Source: a virus
UHGV virus genome: UHGV-0210052
Length of the DNA: 38,615 nt
Strand: one strand, 5' to 3'
Under the pieces are notes generated by a model. The model made no database searches. It was not told where the DNA came from and worked only from the letters and a program-made list of their open reading frames with translations. Every line of letters starts with the position of its first letter. Positions within the stretch are counted from its first letter, which is position 1. Shown piece after piece: positions 1-38,615 of the stretch. A program made the translations under genes and the position numbers.

Positions 1-282
1 ATGAAGCTAAACATCGACCTCGGCAAATACGTTATCACCGGAACCAAACACGATCTGATTCTTAGCGAAAGAGGAATTATCAAAGAAGGCGAGAATGCAG
101 GGAAAGAAACACTAAGTCGTATCGGTTATTACAGCAAGTTTGAGCATCTGGTTAAAGAGTTATGCAACCGTGAAATCCTGTTATCTCAGGCGCAGACGCT
201 ACAGGATATTAAGCAGCATATCGAGACTTTAGGTGTGTCACTCAGCATGGCTATTGACCAGTTCGTGGAGAGTAAATCATGA
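1..282 (+). CDS. hypothetical early-left (ea) protein, 93 aa
   Basis: ORF starts at base 1 (ATG); same strand as the ea operon; stop overlaps next start (ATGA); no recognisable motif. Confidence 0.4.
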
Positions 283-443
283 GAGGACTTGCATACAATC
301 CCGGCATTCTTCCGGCAGAAATGATTATTCGCCAACGCGTAAATCCAATGCCATCGAGAGAGGAATTGCTTAAAAGAAATTCTTTTCCATCAGTGAATCA
401 AAACAAATATCTGAATGCGATGTTGCGGAGTGGGAAGAAATGA
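279..443 (+). CDS. small hypothetical protein, 54 aa
   Basis: Below track size cutoff; ATG overlaps upstream TGA (ATGA) and its stop overlaps the next ATG, a translational-coupling chain. Confidence 0.3.
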
Positions 444-829
444 AACAAATGTCACTAATTGAGATGGATGGATTTCTTAAAGGTAAATGCATCCCAAGTG
501 ATTTAAAGGTTAACGAAACAAACGCTGAATATCTGGTGCGTAAATTTGCTGAAGCGGAGGCCAAGTGCGCGGCGCTGGCGGCGGAGAATGCAAAGCTGAA
601 GGATTACCTGGCCCCTATAGGGCTGAAGGTTGAAGGGACTCCAGCCACCGACACTTTCCTGGATGAAGTCCGGGCGCAGGGCGTGGAGATGCTGGCAAAA
701 AATCATCAGAGTATCGTCAATGCACTTAAGGGAGATTCTTTATTTTCTGATGGTGAATACCGACATGCAGCTATTGTTTCCGCAGCTGTATATTTCGCTG
801 CAGAGCTTCGCAAAGGAGGCAACCAGTGA
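440..829 (+). CDS. hypothetical ea protein, 129 aa
   Basis: Intact ORF; coiled-coil-like Ala/Glu-rich middle; stop overlaps next GTG start. Confidence 0.5.
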
Positions 830-1470
830 GTAACCGTTTTTACATGATGTGCTTGCGTGAAACTGTGGGTAATAACGCCTCATTCCATTGCCATAACGGT
901 AATGGTTACAGTTCTGATATCGATCGAGCACATGTTTACACGCAGGAAGAAGCCCAAAAAGCCTGGAATTGTGGTCGAGATATCGATCAGCCTGTTTGCG
1001 CTGATAGCGTGGATGCAATGGCTGTGTGGCACGTTGATTGCCAGTACATCCCTACAGAAAGCCTGATTGAGTCAGATTGCACTGCGTATGTGGCCTACAA
1101 AAAAGGTAGCTGGAACGGCAACGATGTTTACTGGCTTCAACACGGTGGATTGCCAACAGATGACTTCAGTAAAGCGACCATCTTTAGCGTCGCCAACAAA
1201 AACGAACCAGGAATAGTTTGGTTGCCATTTTCCATTGCTGATGCAGCAAAGCGCCGGACGTTCAATATCAATAACTTTAATCGCAGAACAATGGTTCAGG
1301 GCGCAGGTTTGGTCATGCCTGACTGGTTGAAAGAGCAGAACAGAAGAAAGAAGTCGCGAAGCGGGAAGGTGCGTTGGAATTGTCCGCATTGCGGAAAAAT
1401 AACCTGGCAGTACAGCCCATATGATTTTGAAGGCTGTAGTGATTACAACTGTGAAGAATGGCGAGAATGA
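826..1470 (+). CDS. hypothetical Cys-rich protein, 214 aa
   Basis: GTG start with AAGGAGG SD 7 nt upstream; C-terminal CPHCG...C..C cluster suggests a zinc ribbon. Confidence 0.5.
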   Translation: MSNRFYMMCLRETVGNNASFHCHNGNGYSSDIDRAHVYTQEEAQKAWNCGRDIDQPVCADSVDAMAVWHVDCQYIPTESLIESDCTAYVAYKKGSWNGNDVYWLQHGGLPTDDFSKATIFSVANKNEPGIVWLPFSIADAAKRRTFNINNFNRRTMVQGAGLVMPDWLKEQNRRKKSRSGKVRWNCPHCGKITWQYSPYDFEGCSDYNCEEWRE

Positions 1471-2165
1471 AAATTGACTATCAGGCACTGCGTGAAAAGG
1501 CAGAGAAAGCAACGTGTGGTGTGTGGTCGCTCGAATATGGAAAGGGCCGATTTGATGGTGATGATGCACTAATTCATCGTGAAGTTGCTGGATATATTCC
1601 TATTTGCAGAATTGAAGGAGCGCATCCAGAAAGCGGTTTCGATGAAGATTTCCAAATGGAACAGCAGGCCAACGCTGAATTCATCGCCGCAGCCAATCCG
1701 GCTACCGTCTTGGCGCTGCTGGGCGAGCTGGAAACAGCAAAAAAGCGCATAGCAGAACTGGAAGCCGAACCTGTAAGCCAAACTTGCAAGTTGCCAGTTA
1801 ATACACCTTGCCAAGATGCGCCAGCCCATATCTGGCTGCAAACGGCTGGAGTATGGCCAGAAGATGGCGAGTTAAGCGAATTAACGTGGTGCAGCCACAA
1901 TCAGCACCATGATGACACGCTATATGTTCGAGCTGACCTTGTGAATGGCAACTCTCCGGTAACTCCGGATGGTTGGATAAGCTGTAGTGAGCGAATGCCG
2001 GATAAGTTAATTCCGGTAATGGTCATGTATGAAGACGGTGAGATGTGGTCTGCAATGTGGAATGGTAATCGCTGGGATGATGGCACCGAATATCCGGATC
2101 CGCACTCAGTTACGCACTGGCGTGAAATGCCAGCAGCACCTAAGCAGGAGGTTAACCGTGGCTAA
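1458..2165 (+). CDS. Ead/Ea22-like protein with DUF551-like C-terminal domain
   Basis: N-terminal ALREKAEKATCG...ANAEFIAAANPATVLALLGELE matches the Ea22-like family of lambdoid prophages as recalled; alternative start ATG 1467. Confidence 0.6.
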   Translation: MARMKIDYQALREKAEKATCGVWSLEYGKGRFDGDDALIHREVAGYIPICRIEGAHPESGFDEDFQMEQQANAEFIAAANPATVLALLGELETAKKRIAELEAEPVSQTCKLPVNTPCQDAPAHIWLQTAGVWPEDGELSELTWCSHNQHHDDTLYVRADLVNGNSPVTPDGWISCSERMPDKLIPVMVMYEDGEMWSAMWNGNRWDDGTEYPDPHSVTHWREMPAAPKQEVNRG

Positions 2166-2442
2166 CCTGCAACTTGCCGTTAAAGGTGAATATTTCGACC
2201 AGATGAAGTCATACGAGAAAACGGAAGAGTATCGCCTGTGTAATGATTACTGGAAAAAGCGAATTATGTTCCGGAAGTATGACCGCCTGATTATCACAAA
2301 GGGATATCCGAAGCGCGACGATTCCAGTCGCAGAATTGATGTTCCGTATGGTGGATATGAAATCAAAACAATCACACATCCGCACTTCGGTGATAAACCG
2401 GTAAAGGTGTTCGCGATAAAGGTGAATATCAGCAATGAATAA
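2158..2442 (+). CDS. hypothetical protein, 94 aa
   Basis: GTG start at 2158 with AGGAGG SD at 2146-2151; the track's 2029 start lies inside the upstream gene. Confidence 0.45.
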   Translation: MANLQLAVKGEYFDQMKSYEKTEEYRLCNDYWKKRIMFRKYDRLIITKGYPKRDDSSRRIDVPYGGYEIKTITHPHFGDKPVKVFAIKVNISNE

Positions 2443-2443
2443 C

Positions 2444-2473
2444 AATCCTCGCACTCGCGGGGATTTCTTTTAT
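2444..2473 (+). terminator. intrinsic terminator-like hairpin
   Basis: 9 bp stem (AATCCTCGC/GCGGGGATT, one G-U) with 4 nt loop followed by TCTTTTAT. Confidence 0.45.
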
Positions 2474-2501
2474 CTGAACTCGCTACGGCGAGTTTTGTTT
2501 T

Positions 2502-2813
2502 ATGGAGATGATTATGGCCTGTTCAACATTCAACCATCTAACGTTACAGAAATACCAGACAGACCCTGAAGATTTATGCTCACTGTGTGGCGGAAATCAT
2601 GGTAAAGCCGCCATGATCGAATGTAAGGACAAAATCCACATTTGCCTTAATTGCGTTGATGTCCTCGTTGATATCAAAAATGAGAGAGAAGATAAAAAGC
2701 GTAGCGAGGCTGTTCGCGCCTTAGATTCATGGATGCGGGATGGATATAGTGCCGCGCAAATTTATGACTTAGCAATATCAAAAGGAGAAATACCAGGAGT
2801 GCGCATCGAATAA
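2502..2813 (+). CDS. hypothetical Cys-rich protein, 103 aa
   Basis: Intact ORF with CxxC ... CxxC pattern; followed by a terminator. Confidence 0.45.
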   Translation: MEMIMACSTFNHLTLQKYQTDPEDLCSLCGGNHGKAAMIECKDKIHICLNCVDVLVDIKNEREDKKRSEAVRALDSWMRDGYSAAQIYDLAISKGEIPGVRIE

Positions 2814-2854
2814 GACGTAACCAACATTCGAATTGAAGAACTGAAAGAACACCA

Positions 2855-2878
2855 AGCCGCCTGATGGCGGTTTTTTAT
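2855..2878 (+). terminator. rho-independent terminator at end of ea gene block
   Basis: AGCCGCC-TGAT-GGCGGTT hairpin followed by TTTTTATTG. Confidence 0.55.
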
Positions 2879-2886
2879 TGCCTGAT

Positions 2887-2902
2887 TTGCAGGTTCGATT
2901 CC
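2887..2902 (+). other. tRNA-Arg (argW) T-arm-like fragment upstream of torI
   Basis: TTGCAGGTTCGATTCC matches the T-stem/loop of E. coli tRNA-Arg(CCU) as recalled; identity ends after CC. Confidence 0.4.
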
Positions 2903-2921
2903 CTATTCGGAGATAGCACTC

Positions 2922-3122
2922 ATGCAACACGAACTACAACCTGATTCACTGGTTGATTTGAAATTCATCATGGCTGATACTGGCTTCGGTAAAACCTTCA
3001 TCTACGACCGGATTAAGTCCGGCGACCTGCCAAAAGCCAAAGTTATCCACGGGCGAGCAAGATGGTTATATCGTGACCATTGTGAATTCAAAAATAAGCT
3101 CTTAAGCCGCGCCAATGGGTAA
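2922..3122 (+). CDS. torI: TorI-like excisionase / recombination directionality factor, 66 aa
   Basis: Protein matches, from memory, the 66 aa TorI excisionase of the KplE1/CPS-53 prophage; lies immediately upstream of attP core and int. Confidence 0.7.
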   Translation: MQHELQPDSLVDLKFIMADTGFGKTFIYDRIKSGDLPKAKVIHGRARWLYRDHCEFKNKLLSRANG

Positions 3123-3326: not shown

Positions 3327-3371
3327 GGGTAAAAAGTGGATAAAATAATTTTACCCACCGGATTTTTACCC
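3327..3371. repeat. GGGTAAAA motif cluster abutting int start codon
   Basis: GGGTAAAAA at 3327-3335 direct; TTTTACCC at 3349-3356 and 3364-3371 inverted; last copy ends 1 nt before int ATG. Confidence 0.45.
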
Positions 3372-4529
3372 ATGCTCACCGTTAAGCAGATTGAAGCAGC
3401 AAAGCCGAAAGAAAAACCATACCGCCTACTCGATGGTAATGGCCTGTACCTTTATGTCCCTGTATCAGGGAAAAAGGTATGGCAGCTTCGCTACAAGATT
3501 GACGGTAAGGAGAAAATCCTGACTGTCGGAAAATATCCGCTTATGACTTTGCAGGAAGCAAGGGATAAGGCATGGACTGCGAGGAAAGACATCTCGGTTG
3601 GCATCGATCCGGTAAAGGCGAAAAAGTCTTCGTCTAGCAACAATTCATTTAGTGCGATTTACAAGGAATGGTACGAGCACAAGAAGCAAGTCTGGTCAGT
3701 AGGCTATGCAACTGAACTTGCCAAAATGTTTGATGACGACATTTTACCCATCATCGGCGGTCTTGAGATTCAGGATATTGAGCCGATGCAACTGCTGGAA
3801 GTAATCCGCAGATTTGAAGATCGCGGTGCAATGGAGCGAGCCAACAAAGCCCGCAGAAGATGCGGCGAGGTTTTTCGTTACGCTATTGTCACTGGTAGGG
3901 CTAAATATAACCCGGCACCTGACCTTGCTGACGCCATGAAGGGATACCGCAAGAAGAACTTCCCGTTTTTACCTGCCGACCAGATCCCGGCATTCAACAA
4001 AGCACTTGCAACATTTTCAGGAAGTATCGTATCGCTCATTGCGACCAAAGTTTTACGCTACACAGCCCTAAGAACGAAAGAGCTTCGTTCCATGCAATGG
4101 AAGAACGTCGATTTTGAAAACAGGATTATCACCATCGACGCCAGTGTGATGAAGGGACGCAAAATTCATGTTGTCCCGATGTCAGACCAGGTGGTTGAAC
4201 TTCTCACTACGCTAAGCTCAATCACTAAACCAGTATCAGAGTTTGTTTTTGCCGGGCGCAACGATAAGAAAAAGCCAATCTGCGAGAACGCGGTATTGCT
4301 TGTGATCAAACAAATCGGCTATGAGGGTCTGGAAAGCGGTCACGGATTCAGGCATGAATTCAGCACGATTATGAACGAGCACGAATGGCCTGCTGACGCT
4401 ATTGAAGTGCAACTTGCACATGCCAACGGCGGATCTGTGCGCGGGATTTACAACCATGCTCAGTATCTAGATAAGCGCAGAGAAATGATGCAGTGGTGGG
4501 CTGACTGGATTGATGAAAAGGTGGAGTGA
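3372..4529 (+). CDS. intS: tyrosine integrase, IntS (CPS-53/KplE1) type, 385 aa
   Basis: From MLTVKQIEAAKPKEK the protein matches K-12 IntS as recalled; C-terminal R...HGFRH...Y catalytic motifs; track GTG 3336 start rejected. Confidence 0.9.
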   Translation: MLTVKQIEAAKPKEKPYRLLDGNGLYLYVPVSGKKVWQLRYKIDGKEKILTVGKYPLMTLQEARDKAWTARKDISVGIDPVKAKKSSSSNNSFSAIYKEWYEHKKQVWSVGYATELAKMFDDDILPIIGGLEIQDIEPMQLLEVIRRFEDRGAMERANKARRRCGEVFRYAIVTGRAKYNPAPDLADAMKGYRKKNFPFLPADQIPAFNKALATFSGSIVSLIATKVLRYTALRTKELRSMQWKNVDFENRIITIDASVMKGRKIHVVPMSDQVVELLTTLSSITKPVSEFVFAGRNDKKKPICENAVLLVIKQIGYEGLESGHGFRHEFSTIMNEHEWPADAIEVQLAHANGGSVRGIYNHAQYLDKRREMMQWWADWIDEKVE

Positions 4530-4744: not shown

Positions 4745-4762
4745 CCTTTGAAATTTTATCTC

Positions 4763-5902
4763 ATGGTGTGCATTATGATCTTTGAGGCGCAAAGTCTTTA
4801 TTTATATTTTTTGTCTCTTTTAGCCGTTGTGTTATGTATTACACTATTGACACGATATAACTATTTTTCTCACATCAACTTTGCAAGTAACAGGTATTTC
4901 TTTATAGACGGATTGCGTGGGATAGCTGCGTTCAGCGTTCTTATTAATCACGGCGCTCATACAATTATTACCAATGGAGTTCAGCCCATATTTATAGACT
5001 TCACAAAATACTCCATCACAGGGAATATGGGTAGCTTCGGTGTACAGATTTTCTTTTGCATTACAGGATTTTTGTTCTTTGATAAATTAATAAAAGGAAA
5101 TAATACATTTGACTGGAATAAATTTTATGTTGCTCGGATAAAAAGACTCGTTCCTCTATATATGCTTACTGCGCTTTTGGTGGCAATTTTAGCTATTATA
5201 TTATCCGGCAGTTCAGCAAGGCTTAACTTTGTTGATTTTTCAAGCTTCCTAAATTTTTTTGGGTTTGGATTTTTGGGCACAGAAATCTTCATTGGCTCTT
5301 TTAACGCATCAGGATTAAATGCGGTGATATGGACTCTACCGTATGAATGGAGGTTTTATTTAATTTTCCCTCTATTATCGATTGCCATCGCAAGCAAGAG
5401 ATATGGTATGTTTGCCATTTCCGCAGTAATGTTACTTGCGGCAAGAGACTTTATGACAGAATTTGTTTTGTGGCCATATTTTATAGTTGGCGCCTTAGGT
5501 GCATATATATTCAATAAATCTTATGTTAACATTGATGATAAATATTGGATATTCTCATTCATTTCTTTCATAGCTATTTTTGTTATCTTCTGCTCTTCCG
5601 CAGACAGCTATGGACGAATCAGATTTGCATGCATTTCATTACTATTTATAATGGTACTTATAACTAAACCAAAAATATTTAAAATAAAATCATTAGTTTA
5701 TTTAGGTGAGGCAAGTTATAGTCTTTATTTGCTGCATTTGCCTATCATGGCTATAGTAATGAGAACAATAAATAATTTCTATAACCTATCGAGCATGTCT
5801 ACTGTGAATTACACAATTTTGATAGCCTTTATTGCATCTCTGTGTAGCGTTATTTCCTGTATCTGTTTTAAGAATTTTGAGTGGAGATTCATTAAAAAGT
5901 AA
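4763..5902 (+). CDS. membrane acyltransferase family 3 (OafA/Oac-like), candidate O-antigen acetyltransferase
   Basis: Multi-TM protein with R...FIDGLRGIAAFSVLINHG acyltransferase_3 motif; very AT-rich versus flanks; start uncertain (track TTG 4748, ATG 4763 or 4775). Confidence 0.75.
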   Translation: MVCIMIFEAQSLYLYFLSLLAVVLCITLLTRYNYFSHINFASNRYFFIDGLRGIAAFSVLINHGAHTIITNGVQPIFIDFTKYSITGNMGSFGVQIFFCITGFLFFDKLIKGNNTFDWNKFYVARIKRLVPLYMLTALLVAILAIILSGSSARLNFVDFSSFLNFFGFGFLGTEIFIGSFNASGLNAVIWTLPYEWRFYLIFPLLSIAIASKRYGMFAISAVMLLAARDFMTEFVLWPYFIVGALGAYIFNKSYVNIDDKYWIFSFISFIAIFVIFCSSADSYGRIRFACISLLFIMVLITKPKIFKIKSLVYLGEASYSLYLLHLPIMAIVMRTINNFYNLSSMSTVNYTILIAFIASLCSVISCICFKNFEWRFIKK

Positions 5903-5934: not shown

Positions 5935-8133
5935 CTACGCTATATTAAGATTACCATATGTATTGTTTCCAAGACCATACCATGCCCAGTTTGTTCCTGA
6001 TGCAGGAGTACCTGCATTGTGAATCATATCGCCTATATTTATCAGCACTTTCCCAGGGTATGTTGTAGTAGGAGCAGTGTCTATTCCAGCAGACACATCG
6101 GCAAAACGCCAACCACAGGAAACCATATCTGCGTTATCTCTAAATTTCTTAATTGAAAACGTGTATCTGTTTCCTCTATATATCATTCCAGCAAAACTAG
6201 GCCAGTCAATAAGTTGATTTACTGGTGAGTTTAAAGTGTTACTAAACTCATTATTTTCAATAACTGGTTCATCGATACGCACACCCGAAGTTGATACTAG
6301 ATATGTAGAATCAAAGTCGTTGTCAGAAATAATTGGAGCATAACCACCAATTTCACAACCTGTATTGCCATGAACAAAATATGACTTATTCCCTCGGTAT
6401 ATAGATTTTCTCCATGTGGGCATTGTTACTTTTACGGCATCAGTTCTATCAAACTGGTTGTTTTCAATCACAAGTCCATAACAATATGCAGACATCTGAG
6501 TTTCAGCATAATCATTTATGGCATAACCACCGCCTTTAAATGTATTTTTTGTTATTTTAATTCCATTGAATGATGTTGAGTAGTCATTACTACCATTCCA
6601 GATAATTAGAATATGAGATGAAAATGTGCCATCCTCGTTCTGATCCCCAATGCTTATATTGCTATCAATAACAACATTCTGCGCTGCAACACCGTTAGAT
6701 TCACCTCCTATCTCAACGAATATTCCTTGTCCTGTTTTGATGTTATTCGATATAACTGCACCACCAGTCACCCCCCAAGGAGTAATCCTAGACTGAATAC
6801 TTATAGGGCTTATAAAGTGATTTCTTTCTGCAATTAAATATTTTGTTCTTGCTGAGCACGCAAAATCTTCACCAAAAGTATGCCATTTTCTGCCTGTTCT
6901 GTACGTTTGGCAGTCAATCATCTTAGCAATTCCATTAAGATTTTTAGTGAAAAATGTATAATTTGTTACCAAATCAGTCCTTACATTGCTAAGAGTTATA
7001 TCCTCATTTGGTATAGCACCGTCACCATCAGCATCTGCCATTACAAAGATTCTTGCAGCCAATACGTCAATATCATTAATAGATCCACTACTCCCCTCAA
7101 GTGCGAAACCAAACCAATTCTCTTGAGGGGTAAACGTGGTATCTGAAGGTCCAGTTGAAAAATTTGTGCATGACTGGTTTAACTTTATACCATTAAATTT
7201 AAAGTTTTTGCAGTTGAATAAACCAAAGCAAACACGCTCAGCCTCACCATTTCCATCTGTATTTATATTTACATCATTATCTGCGTAAACAAATAAATTA
7301 TTTTTACCATTAATTACAATTGCTGTTTTACGTATAACACCTGCAGAGTCATGATATTGCTGGCTGATTTGGTAATTAAACTTTATCTCACCGGCGCTAA
7401 AACGTATTGCTCTAACACCACCAAATTTTGATATACAAGCGTTAACCGATGCCGTTGAATCATGCACTCCGTTAATATCATGTCCAGCCCAAACTGTATG
7501 TATGCCATCGAGCACACAATTCGAACGGATCCAGCAACCAGAGCCACCACCATCACTCTCACCAGTTCCCGCAAGGAAAGCAGCGAGCTCAGCATACGAA
7601 CCATCCCACGGAACTGTGGGGCTAAATATGGTGATACCGTTGTGCTGAGATTTAGGCATGCTGGCATCCCAGTAAAACTGCCCGCCGCCAAAGTTGGTTC
7701 CTGGTACGTATCCAATTACATTTAATGTGTGATTCCCAGCAGGCTCGCTCATTAAGGTATGGATGTCAGGAACATTCTCCATTCGCTGGCTAAACTGATC
7801 GGGATCATACTTCAGCACATTGGGAAAATAGAACTGCTGCGAACCATACGCATCATATACAGCCATGGAATGGCCTTGCACAGTTACGAACTTGGCAATC
7901 TGTCCGTTATATACCGGATATCCGGCAGCGTTAATGATTATTGGTTGCGAAACAGGAACGTGAGAGCCGTCTTCGTTCTCTATATAAACCTGAATCTGGT
8001 TTTCTGAATTTACGGGGTCAGCGTCAATTTTACCGATATAAATTTTACCATTGGCAACTGCTTTAAAAGAACGCGCCATAGTGAAGAGTTGCGAAGGCAT
8101 GCTTACCACAACATTTGCGGTGATATCTGACAT
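5935..8133 (-). CDS. tailspike protein, P22-like head-binding N-terminus plus distinct receptor-binding domain, 732 aa
   Basis: [37 protein letters not shown] matches P22 gp9 N-terminal domain as recalled; GGAG SD before ATG 8133; track start 8181 rejected. Confidence 0.9.
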
Positions 8134-8254
8134 TTCATTGCTCCAGACGAATGATATGATGCAACCATGATGTGATTGCATACCGAAATGGTACTATTGA
8201 GTATTTATCCAGTAGGTTACGATGCCATTCCACCCAACTGGTGAGGCATCAAGG

Positions 8255-26572: not shown

Positions 26573-26757
26573 CGTCTCCCCCTCTTGCCCTGTTTGACCA
26601 TCAGGACGCCGTTAACTATTACGTGACGTTCGCCTTTGCTGTCTCGGTTGTACTTGAGCACCGTTCCTCTTGCGCAGGAAAGCATCCTCGCCACTTCGGT
26701 CTGATTGCCTCGTGTCTGGATAAGAAGCTCTGGTATCGTTTGAATTGTGGCGTTCAT
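26569..26757 (-). CDS. ninH: NinH-like protein, 62 aa
   Basis: GNQTEVARMLSCARGTVLKY motif resembles lambda NinH; directly upstream of Q. Confidence 0.7.
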   Translation of the reverse strand: MNATIQTIPELLIQTRGNQTEVARMLSCARGTVLKYNRDSKGERHVIVNGVLMVKQGKRGRR

Positions 26758-27116
26758 ACGTTCTCCAGTTCGGTGATTTTTATTCCAAGCCTTCCGCCTG
26801 GTACTTTCACGCCACGAATTACGCGAATGTCATCGAATTGCTCGTCGTCTTCCGCAAATCCGGCGTGGATAAGGGAGTCGAGTAAACCCTTCAGGATGTT
26901 ATCGAGGTCGCGGCGGCGGGAGTCTGGAACGTCTGCGATGACTTTGATGCGGAGTCGTGATTTGGTGAAAATATCTAACTTGAGTTGGCGGATGATTTTC
27001 TGAACGTCTTTTCTGTATTTCTGGCCTTTATCGCTGATGTAGTATTGGCTTCCCCTTCTTCGCCAGTAGGTATTCACCGACGGCGGGTATGGAAGCACAA
27101 ACTGATATTCGTTCAT
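26754..27116 (-). CDS. rusA: RusA Holliday junction resolvase, 120 aa
   Basis: N-terminal LPYPPSVNTYWRRRG and DxRRRDLDN catalytic motif. Confidence 0.85.
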   Translation of the reverse strand: MNEYQFVLPYPPSVNTYWRRRGSQYYISDKGQKYRKDVQKIIRQLKLDIFTKSRLRIKVIADVPDSRRRDLDNILKGLLDSLIHAGFAEDDEQFDDIRVIRGVKVPGGRLGIKITELENV

Positions 27117-27403
27117 GGCTTAATCTTTCCCTCCTTCAGTAGTATCACCTGCGTCCTGATCACGCCTTCGAGGTGGTAAAGTCTGGCGTCTTTGTTGTCG
27201 AGATTATGGGTGCGTCGGTCGATTTCATCGTGACACGCGCTACAAGCCCATGCGCCGATCAGGTCGTCAGGCTTCATTCCCGTTCCGCAAATTCCAGCCA
27301 TCCGGTAATGTGCCAGAACTGTAGTTTCAGGGTTGCCATTGCATACGCCGTAAATACGTACCTGACATTCTCTTCCGCGCGCTTCTTTGCGTAGGTTAGC
27401 CAT
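27113..27403 (-). CDS. YbcO-like DUF1364 protein, 96 aa
   Basis: RGRECQVRI..VCNGNPETTVLAH..CHDEIDRRTH resembles DLP12 YbcO as recalled. Confidence 0.7.
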   Translation of the reverse strand: MANLRKEARGRECQVRIYGVCNGNPETTVLAHYRMAGICGTGMKPDDLIGAWACSACHDEIDRRTHNLDNKDARLYHLEGVIRTQVILLKEGKIKP

Positions 27404-28125
27404 TAAGCAGCCTCCCCTGTTACTTTCAGCATTCCGTTATCGTGCAGCTTTCTGGTCAGCCACTGTTGACCACGCCCGGTGATTTTTGTGGTGAACGATA
27501 TCTGTATTCCGTGATTTGTGTTGACCGCTGTTTCTTTCACTGTGAAATAGCCGCGATCCATATATTCCTGCATTGGCACATTTCGCCGGGAACCTGAAGC
27601 AATAAGGATTTTGTGATCGCGCATCCACGCAAACAGTTTGTTTGGACCAATTCCAACAACCTTTGCAAAGTTTCCAATCAAAATTCCGCTGGCCTCGCCA
27701 ACGCGATCGGCAAACTCAACTTTAGGTGCGGCAATTGCGAGCTGGTTTTCCAGTTGCATTTTCTGCTCAGCAAGATCAGCAGCAAGGCGCAACGCTTCTG
27801 GTAGCGTTTTGGGGATATTAACCGCAGTTTCCTCAAGCTCTCGCCAACGGTCAACAAGACGAGCGGTGAATTCCGGCGACAACTGAGCGACGACAATAAT
27901 GCTGTCTCGCTTACCTTGTTCGCCCTCAAAAACGTAAGCCTCTACGCCACGAAGTAATCCTAAGTTATTGATTTTTTCGAAAACCACCATTGGGGGATTT
28001 CGGATCACACCTCGAGCCGCCAGTCGTTCAATAGATTGTTTCACCTTGTCATGACGACTTCCCACCAACTCAGCGATTTCAATGCTTGTCATTTTGATGG
28101 AATTGCCATTTATTAACTCATTCAT
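27403..28125 (-). CDS. putative antirepressor (Rha/AntA-like N-terminus, KilAC-like C-terminus), 240 aa
   Basis: N-terminal TSIEIAELVGSRHDKVKQSIERL DNA-binding-like segment; family assignment from motif memory. Confidence 0.6.
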   Translation of the reverse strand: MNELINGNSIKMTSIEIAELVGSRHDKVKQSIERLAARGVIRNPPMVVFEKINNLGLLRGVEAYVFEGEQGKRDSIIVVAQLSPEFTARLVDRWRELEETAVNIPKTLPEALRLAADLAEQKMQLENQLAIAAPKVEFADRVGEASGILIGNFAKVVGIGPNKLFAWMRDHKILIASGSRRNVPMQEYMDRGYFTVKETAVNTNHGIQISFTTKITGRGQQWLTRKLHDNGMLKVTGEAA

Positions 28126-28288
28126 CGTCTTCTTCCTCGTACATTGAGCTGTTCGGATCGCTCATCAGTTCTGCGCAGCAGTGCTCACACATGTGAACTT
28201 CCAGCACATGCAGCTTCTGACCGCAGTTAGCGCACGTTAAAGCTCGCTCGACGCTTTCTTGTTCGTAACTTCGATTTTGGTCAATCAC
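28118..28288 (-). CDS. ninF: NinF-like small Cys-rich protein, 56 aa
   Basis: Manual translation gives (V)[55 protein letters not shown], matching lambda NinF as recalled; GTG start overlaps ninE stop. Confidence 0.55.
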
Positions 28289-28467
28289 CTTGTTTTCCTC
28301 GCACGTTCTCTAAGCCACCGGATATCCCACAGGTGAGCCGTGTAGTTGAAGGTTTTTACGTCAGATTCTTTTGGGATTGGCTTGCGTTTATTTCTGGAGC
28401 GTTTCGTTGGAATGTATTTGCAGTTTTCGCAGATGATGTCGGTGAAACTTCGTCGCTGTCGCCTCAT
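28285..28467 (-). CDS. ninE: NinE-like protein, 60 aa
   Basis: [27 protein letters not shown]... matches lambda NinE as recalled; track start 28557 would overlap the methylase. Confidence 0.7.
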
Positions 28468-28991
28468 GCCGCCCTCCTGACGCCCTGCCCGATCGCCATC
28501 AATGCCGCTTTGGATACGGTAGTAAACATCCGTCGAGGACTGATGAACGGTCGCCAAATCAGCAGCATGGAGCCTTTGCTGTTTCCCTTCTTCTCCAGCC
28601 CTGTCGATGGTTCGATAAAATTAATCCGTCCATCAGTGATAATGCGAACTTCGTCGACACTCTCCAGAGCCTTGCTGAACCATCCGACTGACATATCCTC
28701 TGGCACAAGCATAACTACCGTCTGTCGCTGTTGTATGCACTGCTCAGCGGCTTTTTCCACCCACGGCCTGATATTGCTGTACGGTGGGTTATTCCAGATT
28801 GCACCGTGGCTTATCCACTCAGAATTTAGCGCGTCGTCGGCCTCAGTTAACCAGTGAGCGCACAGAGCATTTTTGTCGCTCGCTGCCGAATCCAGCCAGA
28901 ATCCAAACTCAATATCCAGTGCATCAAAAAGCCAAAGCGGCGTTTGCCAGCAGTCCTTGTCGTGTGCCGGCGTATTTGATTTGATAGTCAT
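28464..28991 (-). CDS. phage Dam-family N6-adenine DNA methyltransferase, 175 aa
   Basis: [10 protein letters not shown] and NPPYS motifs; ATG 28991 has GGAG SD and overlaps ninB stop (ATGA). Confidence 0.7.
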
Positions 28992-29431
28992 GCAGCCCGA
29001 TCTCCCCATCGCGCTTTCCATTCGAGAGCCAGTCGCGCTTCGTCTGACCACTTAACGCCACGCTCTGTCCCGAATGCCTGTATAAGCTCTAATAGCTCAG
29101 CAAATTCGCTTACACGCATCCTGCTGGTTGACTGGCCTATTACCACAAAGCCATTCCCGGCAAGGTTAGGAACAACATCCTGCTGCTTTAATGCTGCGGT
29201 AAACACACACTTCCAGCTTTCTGCATCCAGCCAGCGACCATGCCATTCAACCTGACGAGAGACGTCACCTAAGCAGGCCCATAGCTTCCTGTTTTGGTCT
29301 AAGCTGCGGTTGCGTTCCTGAATGGTTACTACGATTGGTTTGGTTGGGTCTGGAAGAATTTGCTGGATAGCTTGAATGGCGTTCTGCTGATGGATGGGGC
29401 TTCTTAGTTCAAACGTTAGTTTCCTCACCAT
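28988..29431 (-). CDS. ninB: NinB recombination protein, 147 aa
   Basis: Near-identical to lambda NinB as recalled (IVVTIQERNRSLDQNRKLWACLGDVSRQVEWHGRWLDAESWKC). Confidence 0.85.
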   Translation of the reverse strand: MVRKLTFELRSPIHQQNAIQAIQQILPDPTKPIVVTIQERNRSLDQNRKLWACLGDVSRQVEWHGRWLDAESWKCVFTAALKQQDVVPNLAGNGFVVIGQSTSRMRVSEFAELLELIQAFGTERGVKWSDEARLALEWKARWGDRAA

Positions 29432-33639: not shown

Positions 33640-34356
33640 ATGGAAAATAAAAAATCACTGACGACAGAACAGCTCGAAGACGCTAAGCGGCTTAAGGCTT
33701 TGTATGAGTCAAAAAAGAAAGAATTGGGAATAACCCAATACTCAATCGCTGATGAACTGGGTATCACCCAAGGAGCGGTAGGGCATTATCTTAATGGCAG
33801 AAACGCGCTAAACGTTGAGGTTGCATCTGGTTTTGCACGATTGTTGCAAGTCTCAATTGCTGATTTTAGCCAGTCAATTGCTGCCAAGGTTGCAGAACAG
33901 GCAGAAAGCCTTAAGAGCGATGCCAACGTAAGGTATGCAGGGGAATACAGAGCAGGAAAGAGGTATCCGGTGTTAAGCAGTATCCAGGCTGGCTCGTGGT
34001 GTGAAGCATGCGAACCATACACCATTAAAGACATAGATGTTTGGCTTGAGTCTGACGCGCATATTCAAGGTAATGCGTTTTGGCTTAAAGTGGAAGGTGA
34101 TTCAATGACGGCACCGGTTGGGTTAAGCATTCCAGAGGGAACATTCGTTCTTTTCGATACCGGAAGGGAGGCGATCAACGGCAGCTTGGTCATAGCAAAA
34201 CTTTCTGACTCTAACGAAGCAACATTCAAGAAGCTGATAATCGACGGCGGAAATAAATACCTCAAGGGACTTAATCCTGCATGGCCTCTCGTGCCAATCA
34301 ATGGAAACTGCAAGATTATAGGCGTTGCAATTGAGACAAAACTAAGGCTGGTTTGA
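33640..34356 (+). CDS. cI: CI repressor (HTH N-terminus, LexA-like S24 C-terminus), 238 aa
   Basis: LTTEQLEDAKRLKALYESKKKELG, Ser/Lys dyad context (EGDSM ... FKKL); resembles lambda CI as recalled. Confidence 0.9.
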   Translation: MENKKSLTTEQLEDAKRLKALYESKKKELGITQYSIADELGITQGAVGHYLNGRNALNVEVASGFARLLQVSIADFSQSIAAKVAEQAESLKSDANVRYAGEYRAGKRYPVLSSIQAGSWCEACEPYTIKDIDVWLESDAHIQGNAFWLKVEGDSMTAPVGLSIPEGTFVLFDTGREAINGSLVIAKLSDSNEATFKKLIIDGGNKYLKGLNPAWPLVPINGNCKIIGVAIETKLRLV

Positions 34357-34373
34357 TCACGCAAGGGGCGATT

Positions 34374-34742
34374 ATGGTTGGAACCGCTATAGCAAGCTTT
34401 TTTGGGATGTTGGCAATCTCGACAATTTACGGCTTAGCGCATGCTTTTATTGCGAAATCTCTATCAGAAAAAATAAGCCAGGCTTGGGCGCATAGATCAG
34501 CTCGTTTCATGATTCTTGTGATCATAGCAATACAAGGGATATCTGCATTTATCCTCTATGGATCAAGCTTATACCTATTGTATCAAGGCGCGACATTTAC
34601 GCCTTACACCAGTGATTACGGAACTCTATACGATGGTAGTGAAGACATCACTGTGGCTTGGATCGTCTTTGGTTTATCTATGGCCGTGTCTGTTGTAGCA
34701 GACATCATTAAGGTAATTCTCGTCTTAACCTTCGCTGACTAA
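34374..34742 (+). CDS. small multi-TM membrane protein co-transcribed with cI, 122 aa
   Basis: ATG 34374 with AAGGGG SD; starts 18 nt after cI stop; three predicted TM helices; no motif recognised. Confidence 0.5.
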   Translation: MVGTAIASFFGMLAISTIYGLAHAFIAKSLSEKISQAWAHRSARFMILVIIAIQGISAFILYGSSLYLLYQGATFTPYTSDYGTLYDGSEDITVAWIVFGLSMAVSVVADIIKVILVLTFAD

Positions 34743-34828
34743 CCCATAATCCCGACAGCAATAGCTATCGGGATCCACTTCACATATCCCGCATAAAAAT
34801 CACTGAACAAGCAGACAGCGAAAAAATA

Positions 34829-34913
34829 AATATCCTTTGTATTCATTTGTTTATCATTATTTCATCAAAAATAAATACCTTGGGTATTTACACAATAAAA
34901 TACCTACAGTATT
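34829..34913. promoter_or_regulatory. OL operator array
   Basis: AATATCCTTTGTATT 34829-34843, AATACCTTGGGTATT 34874-34888, AATACCTACAGTATT 34899-34913; same consensus as OR. Confidence 0.55.
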
Positions 34914-34915
34914 CT
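34887..34915 (+). promoter_or_regulatory. PL promoter
   Basis: TTTACA, 17 bp spacer, TATTCT; overlaps OL sites; about 195 nt upstream of N. Confidence 0.5.
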
Positions 34916-34961
34916 TTAGCCATCAGCAGGACGCTGGAAGCCAAACGGAACAGATTGGCAG

Positions 34962-35002
34962 GCTCTTTAACATTGATGGGATTGTCCCGCCGAAATGCGG
35001 GA
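34962..35002 (+). promoter_or_regulatory. nutL (boxA GCTCTTTAACA, boxB hairpin)
   Basis: boxA 34962-34972; boxB TCCCGCCGAAATGCGGGA 34985-35002, identical to the nutR boxB. Confidence 0.6.
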
Positions 35003-35109
35003 ACCAAAGAGTAGTTGGCTTTGGGGTGGCGTGAAGTGCAGCTGCACGACGGCAACCGGAAGATAAGCACCCGGCGCGTCACCGCCAAAGTCAATCATCG
35101 GAGGTCAAC

Positions 35110-35382
35110 ATGACAGTAGTCATTACATATCTGGCTGACGATAACGCCAGAAATCGCCGCAGAGCACGCAGACAGGCTCAACGTGAACAGGCAATGCAAG
35201 AGCAGCGACTGGCACGAAAAATTGCGCTAAAGCTCTCTGGTTGCGTCAGAGCAGATAAAGCAGCATCACTCGGAAGCCTTCGCTGCAAGAAGGCAGATGA
35301 ATGCAGTGGAAGTATTTGCCTGCCAAACGTAGCCATTTACGCGGCAGGCTACCGGAAATCAAAACAACTGACAGCGAGGTAA
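35110..35382 (+). CDS. N: N antiterminator, P22 gp24 type, 90 aa
   Basis: Arg-rich N-terminus NARNRRRARRQAQREQ; C-terminus AIYAAGYRKSKQLTAR resembles P22 gene 24 protein as recalled; GGAGG SD. Confidence 0.8.
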   Translation: MTVVITYLADDNARNRRRARRQAQREQAMQEQRLARKIALKLSGCVRADKAASLGSLRCKKADECSGSICLPNVAIYAAGYRKSKQLTAR

Positions 35383-35610
35383 GTGGTGAATCAGACATAC
35401 ATTCCATCATGCTTGAGAAATCTGCCAAAGCAGAAAGCAAAGCCCCGCAAGCAAGCCATAAAGGACGCTAAGGCAGAGGTTATTGATCAAGCAATACAAT
35501 TGCTCAGGGAGGAGTTAAGAAGTGGCAAGCTCGAAGGAATGATGATGCCCTATCAGCGCGGATATCTATCGGCGATTAGTAAGTTGGAAGTATTGAAGAG
35601 TGAATTATGA
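35383..35610 (+). CDS. hypothetical protein, 75 aa
   Basis: GTG start directly after N stop; basic N-terminus, helical C-terminus. Confidence 0.4.
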   Translation: MVNQTYIPSCLRNLPKQKAKPRKQAIKDAKAEVIDQAIQLLREELRSGKLEGMMMPYQRGYLSAISKLEVLKSEL

Positions 35611-35665
35611 ACTATCTGGAATTTCCGGATGGTTCATTGTTTTGGCAGCAAGCATAGAGGTGAAT

Positions 35666-35962
35666 ATGGAATTCAAAGGTACTAAAGGTAAGTGGGAAAT
35701 AATGATGGATGGCGATGAGATTAAAATCATCCAGGCAGACTCACTTGAAAATGGCGCAGGCTGGCGTTCGTATATTGCAATCTGTGAGGAAGTTCAATGC
35801 ATTGAAGATGCCAATCTAATAGCGGCAGCACCTGACCTTCTCGAAGCACTTCAGTTATTACTTAAGCAAGCCAAAAATAGAACAACGACAACATATCCAG
35901 AATGGTATGGAGCTGTTAATAAGGCTCTCGAAGCTATCAAAAAAGCTATAGGTGATGAATAA
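35666..35962 (+). CDS. hypothetical protein, 98 aa (alternative start 35600)
   Basis: ATG 35666 preceded by GAGGTG SD; AT-rich; stop shares a base with next ATG. Confidence 0.4.
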   Translation: MEFKGTKGKWEIMMDGDEIKIIQADSLENGAGWRSYIAICEEVQCIEDANLIAAAPDLLEALQLLLKQAKNRTTTTYPEWYGAVNKALEAIKKAIGDE

Positions 35963-36150
35963 TGAAAGTAAAAATAACTGCTTCTAATACCAGTTTTGTT
36001 AGTGTTGGTGATATTACAGAAGTAATAACAAACCATGATGGAACACAAGTTATGTGGTCTGATTTCTGTAAAAGATATGAGCGAGTTAGTTGGTGTAAAC
36101 TCGTATGGGGCGTCGAATACGAAGAATTACCTGAAATGCATGACGAATAA
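35962..36150 (+). CDS. hypothetical protein, 62 aa
   Basis: ATG overlapping upstream TAA; AT-rich; followed by inverted repeat and terminator. Confidence 0.45.
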   Translation: MKVKITASNTSFVSVGDITEVITNHDGTQVMWSDFCKRYERVSWCKLVWGVEYEELPEMHDE

Positions 36151-36245
36151 GCACTGTGTATTCATTCCAACGAGTGAATACACGGAGCAATGTCGCTCGT
36201 AACTAAACAGGAGCCGACTTGTTCTGATTATTGGAAATCTTCTTT

Positions 36246-36271
36246 GCCCTCCAATGTGAGGGCCTTTTTAT
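36246..36271 (+). terminator. rho-independent terminator inside the PL operon (tL-like)
   Basis: GCCCTC-CAATGT-GAGGGC hairpin followed by CTTTTTAT. Confidence 0.6.
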
Positions 36272-36335
36272 ATGCATACCAATAACGCTTCACGAGAGGC
36301 GTTTTCGTTATGCAATCAAACAGAAGGAGCATCCT

Positions 36336-36506
36336 ATGCAACAGTTCGCTATTGCAGGGGCGGCATCGGTTCGCCCTTTCAACCCGATTTTATCGGTACA
36401 GCATTCACGAAAAAATATTTTAACCGGAGCAGACTTTAAACAACCAAGAATGAAAAGTTTGCTCGAAAAGCTTTGGGATATTTTGAAACAACAAGGCCGT
36501 CCATGA
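36336..36506 (+). CDS. cIII: CIII-like protein (FtsH inhibitor), 56 aa
   Basis: MQQFAIAG ... KSLLEKLWDILKQQGRP parallels lambda CIII MQYAIAG ... RLIDILNQPG as recalled; AAGGAG SD; track start 36231 rejected (spans terminator). Confidence 0.7.
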   Translation: MQQFAIAGAASVRPFNPILSVQHSRKNILTGADFKQPRMKSLLEKLWDILKQQGRP

Positions 36507-36610
36507 GTTTTACAGATAACTGGTCAGACGAAGAATTCATTCGTCAGATGAACAAAATGCTCAATCAGCACAAAGAACAGGAGAAAGATGATGATTCTGA
36601 CTCTGAATGA
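36503..36610 (+). CDS. small acidic hypothetical peptide, 35 aa
   Basis: ATG overlaps cIII stop (ATGA); overlaps next gene in another frame. Confidence 0.3.
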   Translation: MSFTDNWSDEEFIRQMNKMLNQHKEQEKDDDSDSE

Positions 36611-36899
36611 TAAGCGTGAAATATCGCAAATAATCGCAAGTTTTACTGATGAAGATTACGAACGAATCAACAGTGAAGTTGATCGCCTCTGCAAACGTTG
36701 CGACCCAATAAGCGAAATGCTTCGCTCATATAAACCAGATGAACACACTAAGGACGCTATCGACTGGCTGGAAGATGATGACTGTAACTATCAGGAAAAA
36801 GCCGCTGAATGGTTCTGGGATGCAATAACCGAAAGAGTTAAGGCTGAATATGCCTTCGCAATATTCAAACGCAGACACATTTTTGGAGAAGCAGCATGA
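36588..36899 (+). CDS. hypothetical protein, 103 aa
   Basis: AGGAG SD before ATG 36588; directly upstream of recT. Confidence 0.5.
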   Translation: MMILTLNDKREISQIIASFTDEDYERINSEVDRLCKRCDPISEMLRSYKPDEHTKDAIDWLEDDDCNYQEKAAEWFWDAITERVKAEYAFAIFKRRHIFGEAA

Positions 36900-37807
36900 G
36901 CAATATCGTTGAATTCGTTAAACAGCAGGAGCAGTTATTCTGCGGAGCATTGACTGAACAGACGGTGACATGGGCTAAGGAAAGCCAGTTTGCAATTCAG
37001 TATTTCCAGAAAAACGATTACCTGGCTAAAACGGCACTGGCAAATCCGACCAGCGCACAGAACGCTATCATCAACGTTGCGGCGATCGGCATCACCTTAA
37101 ACCCGGCCAGCAAACTGGCTTATCTAGTTCCGCGCGACGGCATGGTTTGCCTTGATATCAGCTATATGGGATTGCTCCATATTGCAATGGAGTCTGGTGT
37201 TATCTCATGGGGTCAGGCAAAACTTGTTCATGCTAACGATACCTATGAGTCAAACGGGCTTGATAAAGCACCAACCCATAAATACAACGCCTTCGGTGAT
37301 CGTGGTGATATCGTTGGCGTTTACTGCACAGTTAAGACGCCAGCAGGTGATTATCTAACGGAAGAGATGAGTCTGGCTGAAATTGAGGCTGTAAGGAAAA
37401 CAAGCAAGGCGGCATTCAGCGATAAAGGACCATGGGTAAATCACTGGAATGAGATGGCGCGAAAGACGGTCGTAAAGCGTGCAAGCAAGTATTGGCCTAA
37501 GGCATCACGTCTTGATAGTGCTATTCACGTACTAAACGAAGAAGAAGGTGTATGGACTGAACCAGTTATGCCGCACAAATCAGAGGAAGATATCCGCGAA
37601 GATGAACGGAAACGCCAGCAGGAAATTATGGAAAAAGCACAACTTCTTTGTGATGAAATGGCTCAGGCAGAAAACATGGATGATTTGAAGCGATATTTTG
37701 CAGAAGCATATCGCCTGACATCTGGAATGAAATTGCAGCAGAACGTACAAGCCATTTACGCAGAATGCAAAGCGAAACTGGAGGTTGCCAGTGAGCAAAC
37801 TATATGA
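36896..37807 (+). CDS. recT: RecT-family single-strand annealing recombinase, 303 aa
   Basis: GPWVNHWNEMARKTVVKRASKYWP matches the Rac RecT motif GPWVTHWEEMAKKTAIRRLFKYLP as recalled. Confidence 0.85.
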   Translation: MSNIVEFVKQQEQLFCGALTEQTVTWAKESQFAIQYFQKNDYLAKTALANPTSAQNAIINVAAIGITLNPASKLAYLVPRDGMVCLDISYMGLLHIAMESGVISWGQAKLVHANDTYESNGLDKAPTHKYNAFGDRGDIVGVYCTVKTPAGDYLTEEMSLAEIEAVRKTSKAAFSDKGPWVNHWNEMARKTVVKRASKYWPKASRLDSAIHVLNEEEGVWTEPVMPHKSEEDIREDERKRQQEIMEKAQLLCDEMAQAENMDDLKRYFAEAYRLTSGMKLQQNVQAIYAECKAKLEVASEQTI

Positions 37808-38273
37808 AATTGCCAATGAATACGCAAAATTGATGGATTCAGATTTAGAACCAGAGATGATTGCTGACACAATAGAAGGCATGGAAGGAGAGTTTACCGA
37901 TAAAATAGAGCAACTTCTTGCCATTATTAAAAATGAATCTGGTTATGCTGAACGCCTCAAGGACGAGGCAAAGTCACTGAATGAACGAGCAGCAGTAATT
38001 CAAAATAAGATTGATAGCATTATGGCATATATAGCCTCATCGCTTGAAATGGTTGGCAAGAAAAAGATTAGAGCAGGTATTCACCAGGTAACAATCCGCA
38101 AACCGTCAGAAACTGTAGAAATCATCGACTCAAGCGCCCTTCCTCCTGAATACGTTGAGTTTGAAACGACAATTAAAGCCGACAAGTTGGCAATCAAGCA
38201 CCAACTAAAAGCAGGAATAAATATCCCAGGCGCTCAACTCAAGGTTGGGAAACCTTCACTTCTTATCAAATAA
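37791..38273 (+). CDS. Gp157-like protein (Siphovirus Gp157 family), 160 aa
   Basis: GTG 37791 with GGAGG SD; KLYEIANEY ... VEIIDSSALPPEY pattern typical of Gp157-family proteins next to RecT/Sak recombinases. Confidence 0.55.
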   Translation: MSKLYEIANEYAKLMDSDLEPEMIADTIEGMEGEFTDKIEQLLAIIKNESGYAERLKDEAKSLNERAAVIQNKIDSIMAYIASSLEMVGKKKIRAGIHQVTIRKPSETVEIIDSSALPPEYVEFETTIKADKLAIKHQLKAGINIPGAQLKVGKPSLLIK

Positions 38274-38284
38274 CGGTATCGCCT

Positions 38285-38599
38285 ATGAAAAAGACTCCAT
38301 GGGAGAAATGGGAAGTCGATTTCTTGCGCGAAGTGGCGGCGACAATGCCAGTTGAAGTTATCGCTGAAAAACTGGAAAGGACTGAAAAAGCAGTAATGGC
38401 GAAAGCAACAAGGATTGGAGCTGACATTGTTAGCCGACTTCGTGGAAGACGATGGACAAGAGCCGAAGTATCACTTTTCGGTAAGTTCTCCGCAGAAGAA
38501 ATAGCAATTGCAACCTGCCGCTCAATTTATTCAGTAAGGGCTATGCGATACAAGCTAAAAAAACTCGATGAAGAAAGAGCAGGCATACGAATAAATTAA
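38285..38599 (+). CDS. hypothetical protein, 104 aa
   Basis: Intact ORF; continues the early-left operon toward window end. Confidence 0.45.
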   Translation: MKKTPWEKWEVDFLREVAATMPVEVIAEKLERTEKAVMAKATRIGADIVSRLRGRRWTRAEVSLFGKFSAEEIAIATCRSIYSVRAMRYKLKKLDEERAGIRIN

Positions 38600-38615
38600 C
38601 ATGGAATAATTAACA

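Follow-up and report, generated by a model that had tools for sequence, protein, structure and literature searches.

The virus genome UHGV-0210052 (38,615 nucleotides [nt]; this whole stretch of DNA is referred to below as the window) carries adjacent genes for a RecT-family protein and a Gp157-family protein. The two genes sit midway along the early-left operon. Judging by sequence identity, they belong to a type of recombination (Rec) module that is already known and catalogued, the HK140-type, nuclease-less Rec module of lambdoid phages. We consider it probable that Gp157 takes the place of Exo as the partner of RecT in this module, with the single strands supplied by the host or by phage replication.

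A Rec module of the HK140 type

The product of the 303-amino-acid (aa) open reading frame (ORF) at 36896-37807 (+ strand) matched the Pfam RecT profile PF03837 over residues 31-217 (E = 3.7e-32; 111.9 bits, cut-off 24). It also matched TIGR00616 "phage RecT family" (82.4 bits, cut-off 52.65) and phrog_148 (E = 2.3e-92), and on these profile matches it is a RecT-family single-strand annealing protein. The ORF at 37785-38273 matched the whole of the Sipho_Gp157 profile PF05565 (positions 1-162 of 162; E = 1.5e-36; 126.3 bits, cut-off 28.6). Because a GGAGG sequence lies 6 nt upstream of the GTG at 37791 and the homologs are 160 aa long, we placed the start of gp157 at 37791 and not at 37785. With this start, its first 17 nt lie within the end of recT. 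A preliminary description of this DNA, made from the sequence alone, had named the same succession of RecT and a Gp157-family protein, and the profile scores bear it out.

The DNA at 34300-38615 was 95-98% identical to that of HK140, mEpX1, Gally, Kapi1, vB_EcoP-611R6 and other phages, and the module of phage Dewey showed 95-98% identity likewise. Against HK140, nucleotide identity reached 98% over 82% of this interval, with 96.6% identity for the RecT tail and 98.1% for Gp157. The HK140 module has the same genes in the same order and at the same early-left position, and there was essentially no difference within the module. RefSeq annotates the four HK140 products as "hypothetical" (102 aa), "RecT-like ssDNA annealing protein", "Mu Gam-like end protection" and "transcriptional regulator, D5-like".

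This module type appears in a survey of the Rec modules of 325 lambdoid phages (Zheng, Casjens, Davidson, Amundsen, Smith, Genome Res 2025 35:1767; PMC12315714). Its authors record HK140 as having strand-annealing protein type 4 (SAP-4) and MuGam, their name for the HK140 homolog of Gp157, with no nuclease and no single-stranded DNA-binding protein (SSB). They count only RecT and MuGam as HK140 module genes and explicitly leave the shuffling of partner domains unanalyzed. A nuclease gene is absent from 84 of the 246 Rec modules in that survey, and 46 phages fall into a "P22 class" with anti-RecBCD and annealase functions only. The preliminary description had treated a RecT without an exonuclease as unusual; given the nuclease-less modules published in this survey, one of them 98% identical to the module studied here, and in an earlier paper (Steczkiewicz et al. 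2021, PMC8093625), that premise is outdated.

The genes orf103, recT, gp157 and orf104 form a conserved, tightly packed cassette and not a chance neighborhood. Among 53 Gp157 loci with at least 3.5 kb of flanking sequence on either side, RecT and Gp157 were kept in all 53, orf103 in 52, orf104 in 50 and a 35-aa ORF upstream of orf103 in 48. Each of the remaining early-left ORFs of the window occurred in only 3-31 of the 53 loci. Prophages of Serratia marcescens and Enterobacter cloacae have a similar succession (an ORF of ~100 aa, RecT, Gp157 and an ORF of ~95-120 aa) within different surrounding genes. A search of IMG/VR returned 401 relatives; the best 80 were all near-identical loci, which served to define boundaries, and diversity was drawn from other contigs and a phage collection.

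Such conservation bears on whether the module could be the decayed remnant of a RecT-Exo system that has lost exo and, with it, its recombination function, which is the least probable of the explanations we considered. The same RecT core does accompany Exo in phi80, in Stx phages and in Aeromonas and Vibrio phages, and recT is truncated in two IMG/VR loci (L007 and L013). However, all four ORFs of the window are intact and closely packed, and its RecT tail is a different conserved domain, not a truncation. The cassette also recurs in Escherichia, Serratia, Enterobacter, Klebsiella, Pantoea, Aeromonas and Vibrio at 40-80% protein identity, a cross-genus conservation that implies purifying selection. 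Beyond the IMG/VR relatives, it is carried by the isolate phages HK140, mEpX1, Kapi1 and Dewey.

The search for an exonuclease covered every early-left ORF of at least 45 aa, at 34353-38599 and 1-3122; all of them were scanned against Pfam and PHROGs, and most against NCBIfam as well. None matched YqaJ/lambda Exo, RecE or any other nuclease family. Ten ORFs of the early-right/nin region, scanned in addition, gave no exonuclease family and no processive exonuclease. Through tblastn using lambda Exo, Bet, P22 Erf and Abc2 as queries, we obtained no hits in the circularized early region or in 89 Gp157-related loci, and Abc2 had no Pfam match in the window ORFs scanned either. The early-left scan runs past the window end since early-left ORFs must be read across the junction of the window, the genome of a P22-like lambdoid phage that is circularly permuted and apparently complete. 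The + strand run of ORFs that makes up the operon passes the window end, resumes at coordinate 1 and ends in xis and int. The preliminary description was therefore right that no exonuclease partner is recognizable among the early-left ORFs, and the profile searches found no divergent exonuclease among the neighbors of recT; that the operon continues past the window end had escaped it.

An exonuclease might still be present in disguise, with Gp157, orf103, the 214-aa product of the ORF at 826-1470 or the YbcO-family protein of the nin region resecting DNA ends in what would be a two-component system after all. We judge this very unlikely. Several early-left ORFs have no known function, the Pfam family of YbcO is named "Putative nuclease YbcO" and the 214-aa product approaches lambda Exo (226 aa) in size, but no early-left ORF matched a nuclease family. 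The near-invariant residues of the Gp157 family are L4, Y5, K38, Y80, P118, K132, G142 and G147; no aspartate, glutamate or histidine is conserved, which argues against a metal-dependent nuclease. The orf103 product is a 102-aa helical bundle, and YbcO, at 96 aa, is encoded in the early-right nin region beside RusA. We rejected the 214-aa ORF as a hidden exonuclease, as it is Exo-like in size only and had no family match and no PDB sequence match; its presence in only 4 of the 53 related loci also places it outside the module.

The RecT tail and its co-occurrence with Gp157

RecT of the window combines an annealing core with a distinct C-terminal tail. Residues 4-219 were 59% identical to phi80 RecT, whereas the last ~85 residues could not be aligned with it. 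The C-terminal domain of lambda Beta shares 74% identity with the tail of phi80 RecT, despite unrelated core sequences in these two proteins, and 50% with the tail of VT2phi_272 RecT. A structure of the Beta C-terminal domain bound to Exo is available (PDB 6M9K, cited in PMC12315714), and phi80 RecT is followed by a lambda-type Exo that is 85% identical to lambda Exo. The window RecT tail resembled neither this domain of lambda Beta nor the tail of phi80 RecT and is not of the Exo-docking type.

The type of tail varied with the gene downstream. This RecT core was present in 181 phage records, 24 of which aligned over at least 80% of the length of the window RecT. Three sampled records had tails of the window type (40-52% identity), namely Aeromonas phage 4_L372X, Klebsiella phage KO-TP1 and Vibrio phage 1.247.B, and a Gp157 homolog (52-62% identity) was encoded directly downstream in 3 out of 3. 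By contrast, RecTs with the same core and other tails were followed by a lambda Exo homolog (39-87%) in 4 out of 4 cases (phi80, VT2phi_272, Aeromonas phage vB_AsaM-56 and Vibrio phage 1.198.B). A tblastn search of 50,697 phage records with the tail alone gave 26 positive records, all 26 of which also had a Gp157 of at least 52% identity. Conversely, a Gp157 at least 50% identical to that of the window occurred in 27 records, and the tail was found in 26 of them. The exception was Vibrio phage 1.148.O (L100, 1849-3442), whose Gp157 is 54% identical; the tail is absent, and upstream of Gp157 lies an unrelated annealing protein of 216 aa, downstream an SSB with an oligonucleotide/oligosaccharide-binding (OB) fold.

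The same tail was found on a different annealase. In Pantoea phage PdC23 (L099, 1408-2983), the annealase has an Erf core that is 81% identical to P22 Erf, and residues 251-296 of the window RecT correspond to its C-terminal 46 residues at 59% identity. A Gp157 (61% identical) is encoded downstream of this Erf, with an HNH endonuclease gene inserted between the two. The annotation of phage Louie suggests the same HNH insertion between the annealase gene and gp157. Judged by these alignments, the RecT tail is a mobile unit that accompanies Gp157 in the way the Beta-type tail accompanies Exo; the analogy with Beta makes it a probable Gp157-docking domain.

As for Gp157 itself, the window protein fell into phrog_253 "Mu Gam-like end protection" (E = 3.7e-53). 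Its match to the Phage_Mu_Gam profile PF07352 was colinear over 118 of 149 profile positions and stayed below the cut-off (E = 0.009; 16.4 bits, cut-off 28.3). PF07352 cross-matches appeared in 17 of 132 diverse Gp157-family members, with a best E value of 5.3e-6. When a broad Gp157 profile was compared with Mu Gam by hhalign, the C-terminal domains aligned (E = 0.001) at a probability of only 21%. An AlphaFold2 (AF2) model, with a predicted local distance difference test score (pLDDT) of 80.5, showed a long helix (21-88) and a small beta-rich domain. No specific PDB match was obtained from this model or from PDB sequence searches with narrow and broad alignments. On the profile comparisons, Gp157 is plausibly homologous to Mu Gam, a relationship that both PHROGs and Zheng et al. 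2025 (PMC12315714) accept, and we infer that it is a putative partner of RecT that binds the ends of double-stranded DNA (dsDNA). The family is large, with 12,928 cluster representatives (E ≤ 0.001) and members in 561 of the 50,697 phage records.

Genes on either side of recT and gp157

The unknown 103-aa protein that the preliminary description placed before RecT was recovered as orf103, which is 102 aa long from its ATG start and whose stop overlaps the recT start as ATGA. It had no Pfam match (E < 0.1) and no NCBIfam match, and it belongs to phrog_3486, a group of unknown function. Homologs were found in Serratia (38% identity, E = 1e-17) and Enterobacter (48%, E = 8e-37). Some database homologs (P0129 and P0142) match orf103 over its N-terminal half to three-quarters only and continue with other sequence, and P0129 carries a DUF551 domain; these partial homologs suggest mosaic junctions within the orf103 gene.

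The gene order is cIII, kil, gam, bet and exo in lambda, and cIII, a small ORF, orf103, recT and gp157 here. The slot before RecT, Gp157 and orf104 is occupied in phage Dewey and in the metagenomic locus L088 by a true Gam (PF06064), 54-63% identical to that of lambda, and in KO-TP1 by a phi80-type GamL (78% identical). In the panel of Zheng et al. 2025 (PMC12315714), such doubling of Gam and a MuGam-type protein is reported only for HK639. The sister modules of Dewey, L088 and KO-TP1, with Gp157 alongside Gam or GamL, speak for a Gp157 function beyond the blocking of RecBCD.

Further comparison of orf103 with Gam gave mixed results. At 102 aa and an isoelectric point (pI) of 4.65, orf103 resembles GamS (98 aa, pI 5.0) and Gam proteins in general (pI 4.8-5.0). 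The protein is acidic, and its AF2 model (pLDDT 84) is all-helical, with five helices. Among the PDB matches listed by Foldseek, the top TM-score belonged to RecBCD-bound lambda GamS (5mbv_A; 0.51/0.53 over 89 columns), at a non-significant E value of 8.3. BLASTP with the L088 Gam gave a colinear match (E = 2e-4), and the two proteins have a DDDxx[FY]QE motif in common. Comparison with lambda Gam by hhalign reached a probability of only 6-9%, and the orf103 profile retrieved no Gam chains and nothing specific among PDB sequences. Homology to phi80 GamL was rejected, as we saw no similarity. The protein did not match the PF06064 profile, and we claim neither homology to lambda Gam nor membership of the Gam family; it shares the slot and possibly a similar fold only. 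We regard orf103 as a positional analog of Gam and a candidate RecBCD inhibitor.

The gene after gp157, orf104, begins 11 nt past the gp157 stop. Its product matched phrog_323 (E = 2.8e-20), as did P22 Abc1 (E = 1.3e-23), Mu gp9 (E = 5.2e-29) and the Enterobacter Abc1. Using an alignment of nine orf104 sequences, hhalign gave a probability of 95% with Abc1 (E = 3.5e-8; 81 columns, near full length) and 91.6% with Mu gp9 (E = 8e-7). Direct BLASTP of orf104 against P22 Abc1 returned nothing. Serratia homologs, which match orf104 at 31% (E = 1e-12), align with Abc1 over nearly the full length (E = 3e-4). These intermediates, together with phrog_323 and the hhalign result, indicate that the "Abc1" annotation in phage Gally is right despite the failed BLASTP search. 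In L089, an Enterobacter locus, a homolog of P22 Abc1 (48% identical) occupies the position that follows Gp157. To judge from these profile and alignment matches, orf104 is a homolog of P22 Abc1 and Mu gp9.

Mu gp9, previously without known function, is encoded immediately upstream of gam (L087, 5482-6325). With gp9 beside gam in Mu and orf104 beside gp157 here, the adjacency of a Gam-type gene and an Abc1/gp9-type gene recurs, suggestive of a conserved functional connection of Abc1 with Gam-type proteins.

Upstream of orf103, the 35-aa ORF matched phrog_17766 (E = 5e-16) and phrog_2123 "recombinase" (E = 3.5e-10); the HK140 annotation omits it. We rejected homology to P22 Arf, as the two share only a short N-terminal motif (WSDEEFI versus FSDEEFI) and the ORF does not belong to phrog_2445, the group of Arf. 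Whether the 35-aa ORF counts as a member of the cassette is uncertain. The homology of orf104 to Abc1 and Mu gp9, the position of orf103 in the Gam slot and the Gp157-matched RecT tail had all escaped the preliminary description.

Working model, genome setting and comparison with known systems

If Gp157 replaces Exo as the partner of RecT, the module might operate as follows. RecT would act as the single-strand annealing protein, and Gp157 would bind dsDNA ends and protect them against RecBCD and other exonucleases of the host. Coupling to Gp157 would run through the dedicated C-terminal domain of RecT, much as the Beta C-terminal domain docks Exo. The single strands for RecT would come from host resection or from phage replication intermediates. 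The orf103 protein, in the Gam slot, would probably add inhibition of RecBCD at the protein level, and the Abc1-like orf104 would be an accessory factor, as in P22. The preliminary description had proposed reliance on host nucleases or on an unrecognized partner. The first proposal agrees with the standard reading of nuclease-less modules; as to the second, no divergent exonuclease turned up among the early-left ORFs.

A more specific proposal, which we put forward tentatively, is that Gp157 is a dedicated annealase-docking partner and a Mu Gam/Ku-like end-binder. It would be engaged through a portable tail of ~46-85 residues, carried by RecT here and by Erf in PdC23, so that a two-component recombinase of the kind "end-binder + annealase" replaces the classical "exonuclease + annealase". 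On this proposal, orf103 would be a third, so far unrecognized sequence type of Gam-fold RecBCD inhibitor.

Several points weigh against the replacement of Exo by Gp157 as we have set it out. The source of resection is wholly inferred, and the Gam-likeness of orf103 was significant on no single test. With Gam or GamL beside Gp157 in Dewey, L088 and KO-TP1, a purely anti-RecBCD Gp157 would be redundant, and its real activity may differ. Finally, the co-occurrence of the tail and Gp157 may be plain physical linkage of two abutting DNA segments.

This last point leads to a rather unlikely alternative in which Gp157 is a stand-alone end protector or anti-RecBCD factor, the usual description of Mu Gam, and is uncoupled from RecT. 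RecT would then act alone on single-stranded DNA at forks or on ends resected by the host, and the tail and gp157 would be inherited together through adjacency. Zheng et al. 2025 (PMC12315714) class the HK140 protein as a MuGam-type anti-RecBCD function, and single-strand annealing proteins alone suffice for oligonucleotide recombination (noted in PMC8093625). Since the DNA that encodes the tail overlaps gp157, linkage is to be expected, and more distant Gp157 homologs adjoin unrelated annealases such as Sak4. However, the tail stays with Gp157 in PdC23 despite the HNH insertion, and it does so on an Erf core. The equivalent block in lambda, the Beta C-terminal domain with Exo, corresponds to a proven physical interaction (6M9K; PMC12315714), and the redundancy just mentioned speaks against a role confined to RecBCD. 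We therefore prefer the reading in which Gp157 is the partner of RecT.

The leads that are new here are modest: the co-variation of the RecT tail with Gp157, the variable Gam slot, and the adjacency of Abc1/gp9-type and Gam-type genes in this phage and in Mu. Together they amount to a testable hypothesis for the function of the very large Gp157 family and for the matching of annealases to partners. They also bear on the choice of portable recombineering systems, as dsDNA recombineering may work less well with a RecT that lacks the partner or tail matched to it.

The features of the window, and three sister modules that combine Gp157 with Gam or GamL, are listed in Table 1. The virion genes are P22-like, and outside the Rec module the genome is a different mosaic from HK140. 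The early-right/nin region also encodes a DnaB-type helicase and Roi/Ant. The phrog_625 match of the 137-aa ORF begins at residue 44, so its true start probably lies near 2158.

Table 1. Coordinates of the features discussed; those of the sister modules refer to their own loci.
Feature	Sequence	Coordinates	Strand	Remarks
cI-type repressor gene	window	33640-34356	+	
N-like antiterminator	window	35110-35382	+	PF25694, E = 1e-15
cIII	window	36336-36506	+	phrog_550
Small ORF, 35 aa	window	36503-36610	+	ATG at 36503; ORF opens at TTG 36473; between cIII and orf103
orf103	window	36591-36899	+	ATG at 36591; alternative start 36588
RecT annealing core, residues 1 to about 215	window	36896-37540	+	PF03837
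RecT C-terminal domain, residues 216-303	window	37541-37807	+	pI 4.6
gp157, 160 aa	window	37791-38273	+	GTG start; position held by exo in lambda and phi80
orf104, 104 aa	window	38285-38599	+	basic (pI 10); double helix-turn-helix
DUF5405 protein	window	1-282	+	early-left operon after wrap
ORF	window	440-829	+	early-left operon after wrap
ORF, 214 aa	window	826-1470	+	early-left operon after wrap
Ead/Ea22+DUF551 protein	window	1458-2165	+	early-left operon after wrap
ORF, 137 aa as listed	window	2029-2442	+	overlaps 3' end of Ead/Ea22 gene
ORF	window	2502-2813	+	early-left operon after wrap
xis	window	2922-3122		end of early-left operon
int	window	3336-4529		end of early-left operon
nin region	window	26754-29431	-	
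RusA	window	26754-27116	-	nin region
YbcO-family "putative nuclease", 96 aa	window	27113-27403	-	nin region
Dam methylase	window	28464-29051	-	nin region
NinB/Orf	window	28988-29431	-	nin region
Sister module, Dewey	L091	3658-5792		Gp157 with Gam
Sister module, metagenomic	L088	3812-5919		Gp157 with Gam
Sister module, KO-TP1	L094	2201-4322		Gp157 with GamL

Between int and a 748-aa ORF (5935-8181, - strand) lies a hydrophobic 384-aa ORF (4748-5902, + strand) in a stretch with a low GC content of 34-36%, against about 50% elsewhere. Judged by position and size, the 384-aa ORF may be a lysogenic-conversion gene and the 748-aa ORF may encode the tailspike. Neither strand of the whole window contains a Chi site (GCTGGTGG), against a chance expectation of about one; this agrees with the published class of lambdoid phages encoding an anti-RecBCD function but is neither significant nor discriminating alone.

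Among known systems, lambda Red and the phi80 module share the operon position and the succession of a small acidic protein, an annealase and a partner gene that overlaps the annealase stop. They differ in the third slot, which holds a YqaJ/lambda-Exo gene there and gp157 here, and in the RecT tail, which is unrelated to the Exo-docking domain of Beta. In addition, sequence profiles do not identify orf103 as Gam or GamL. The P22 module (arf, erf, abc1 and abc2) likewise has no phage exonuclease, exploits a host enzyme and encodes an Abc1-family protein after the recombination genes. However, its annealase is Erf where RecT is found here, it has no Gp157, and it includes Abc2, a RecC-binding modifier of RecBCD that was not found in this module.

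In Mu, a Gam-type protein adjoins a phrog_323 protein, as here, although the gene order is reversed and no annealase lies beside gam. Mu Gam belongs to PF07352 and phrog_491, whereas Gp157 belongs to PF05565 and phrog_253. In Firmicutes phages, sipho_gp157, Mu gam, DUF1351 and DUF2483 share a slot beside erf or sak4, from which analogous functions have been inferred (Steczkiewicz et al. 2021, PMC8093625). In those modules gp157 lies upstream of erf or sak4 and usually comes with ssb; in the window it lies downstream of recT, with no phage SSB. Common to both is a Gp157-family gene that, without a dedicated exonuclease, stands beside the gene for an annealing protein.

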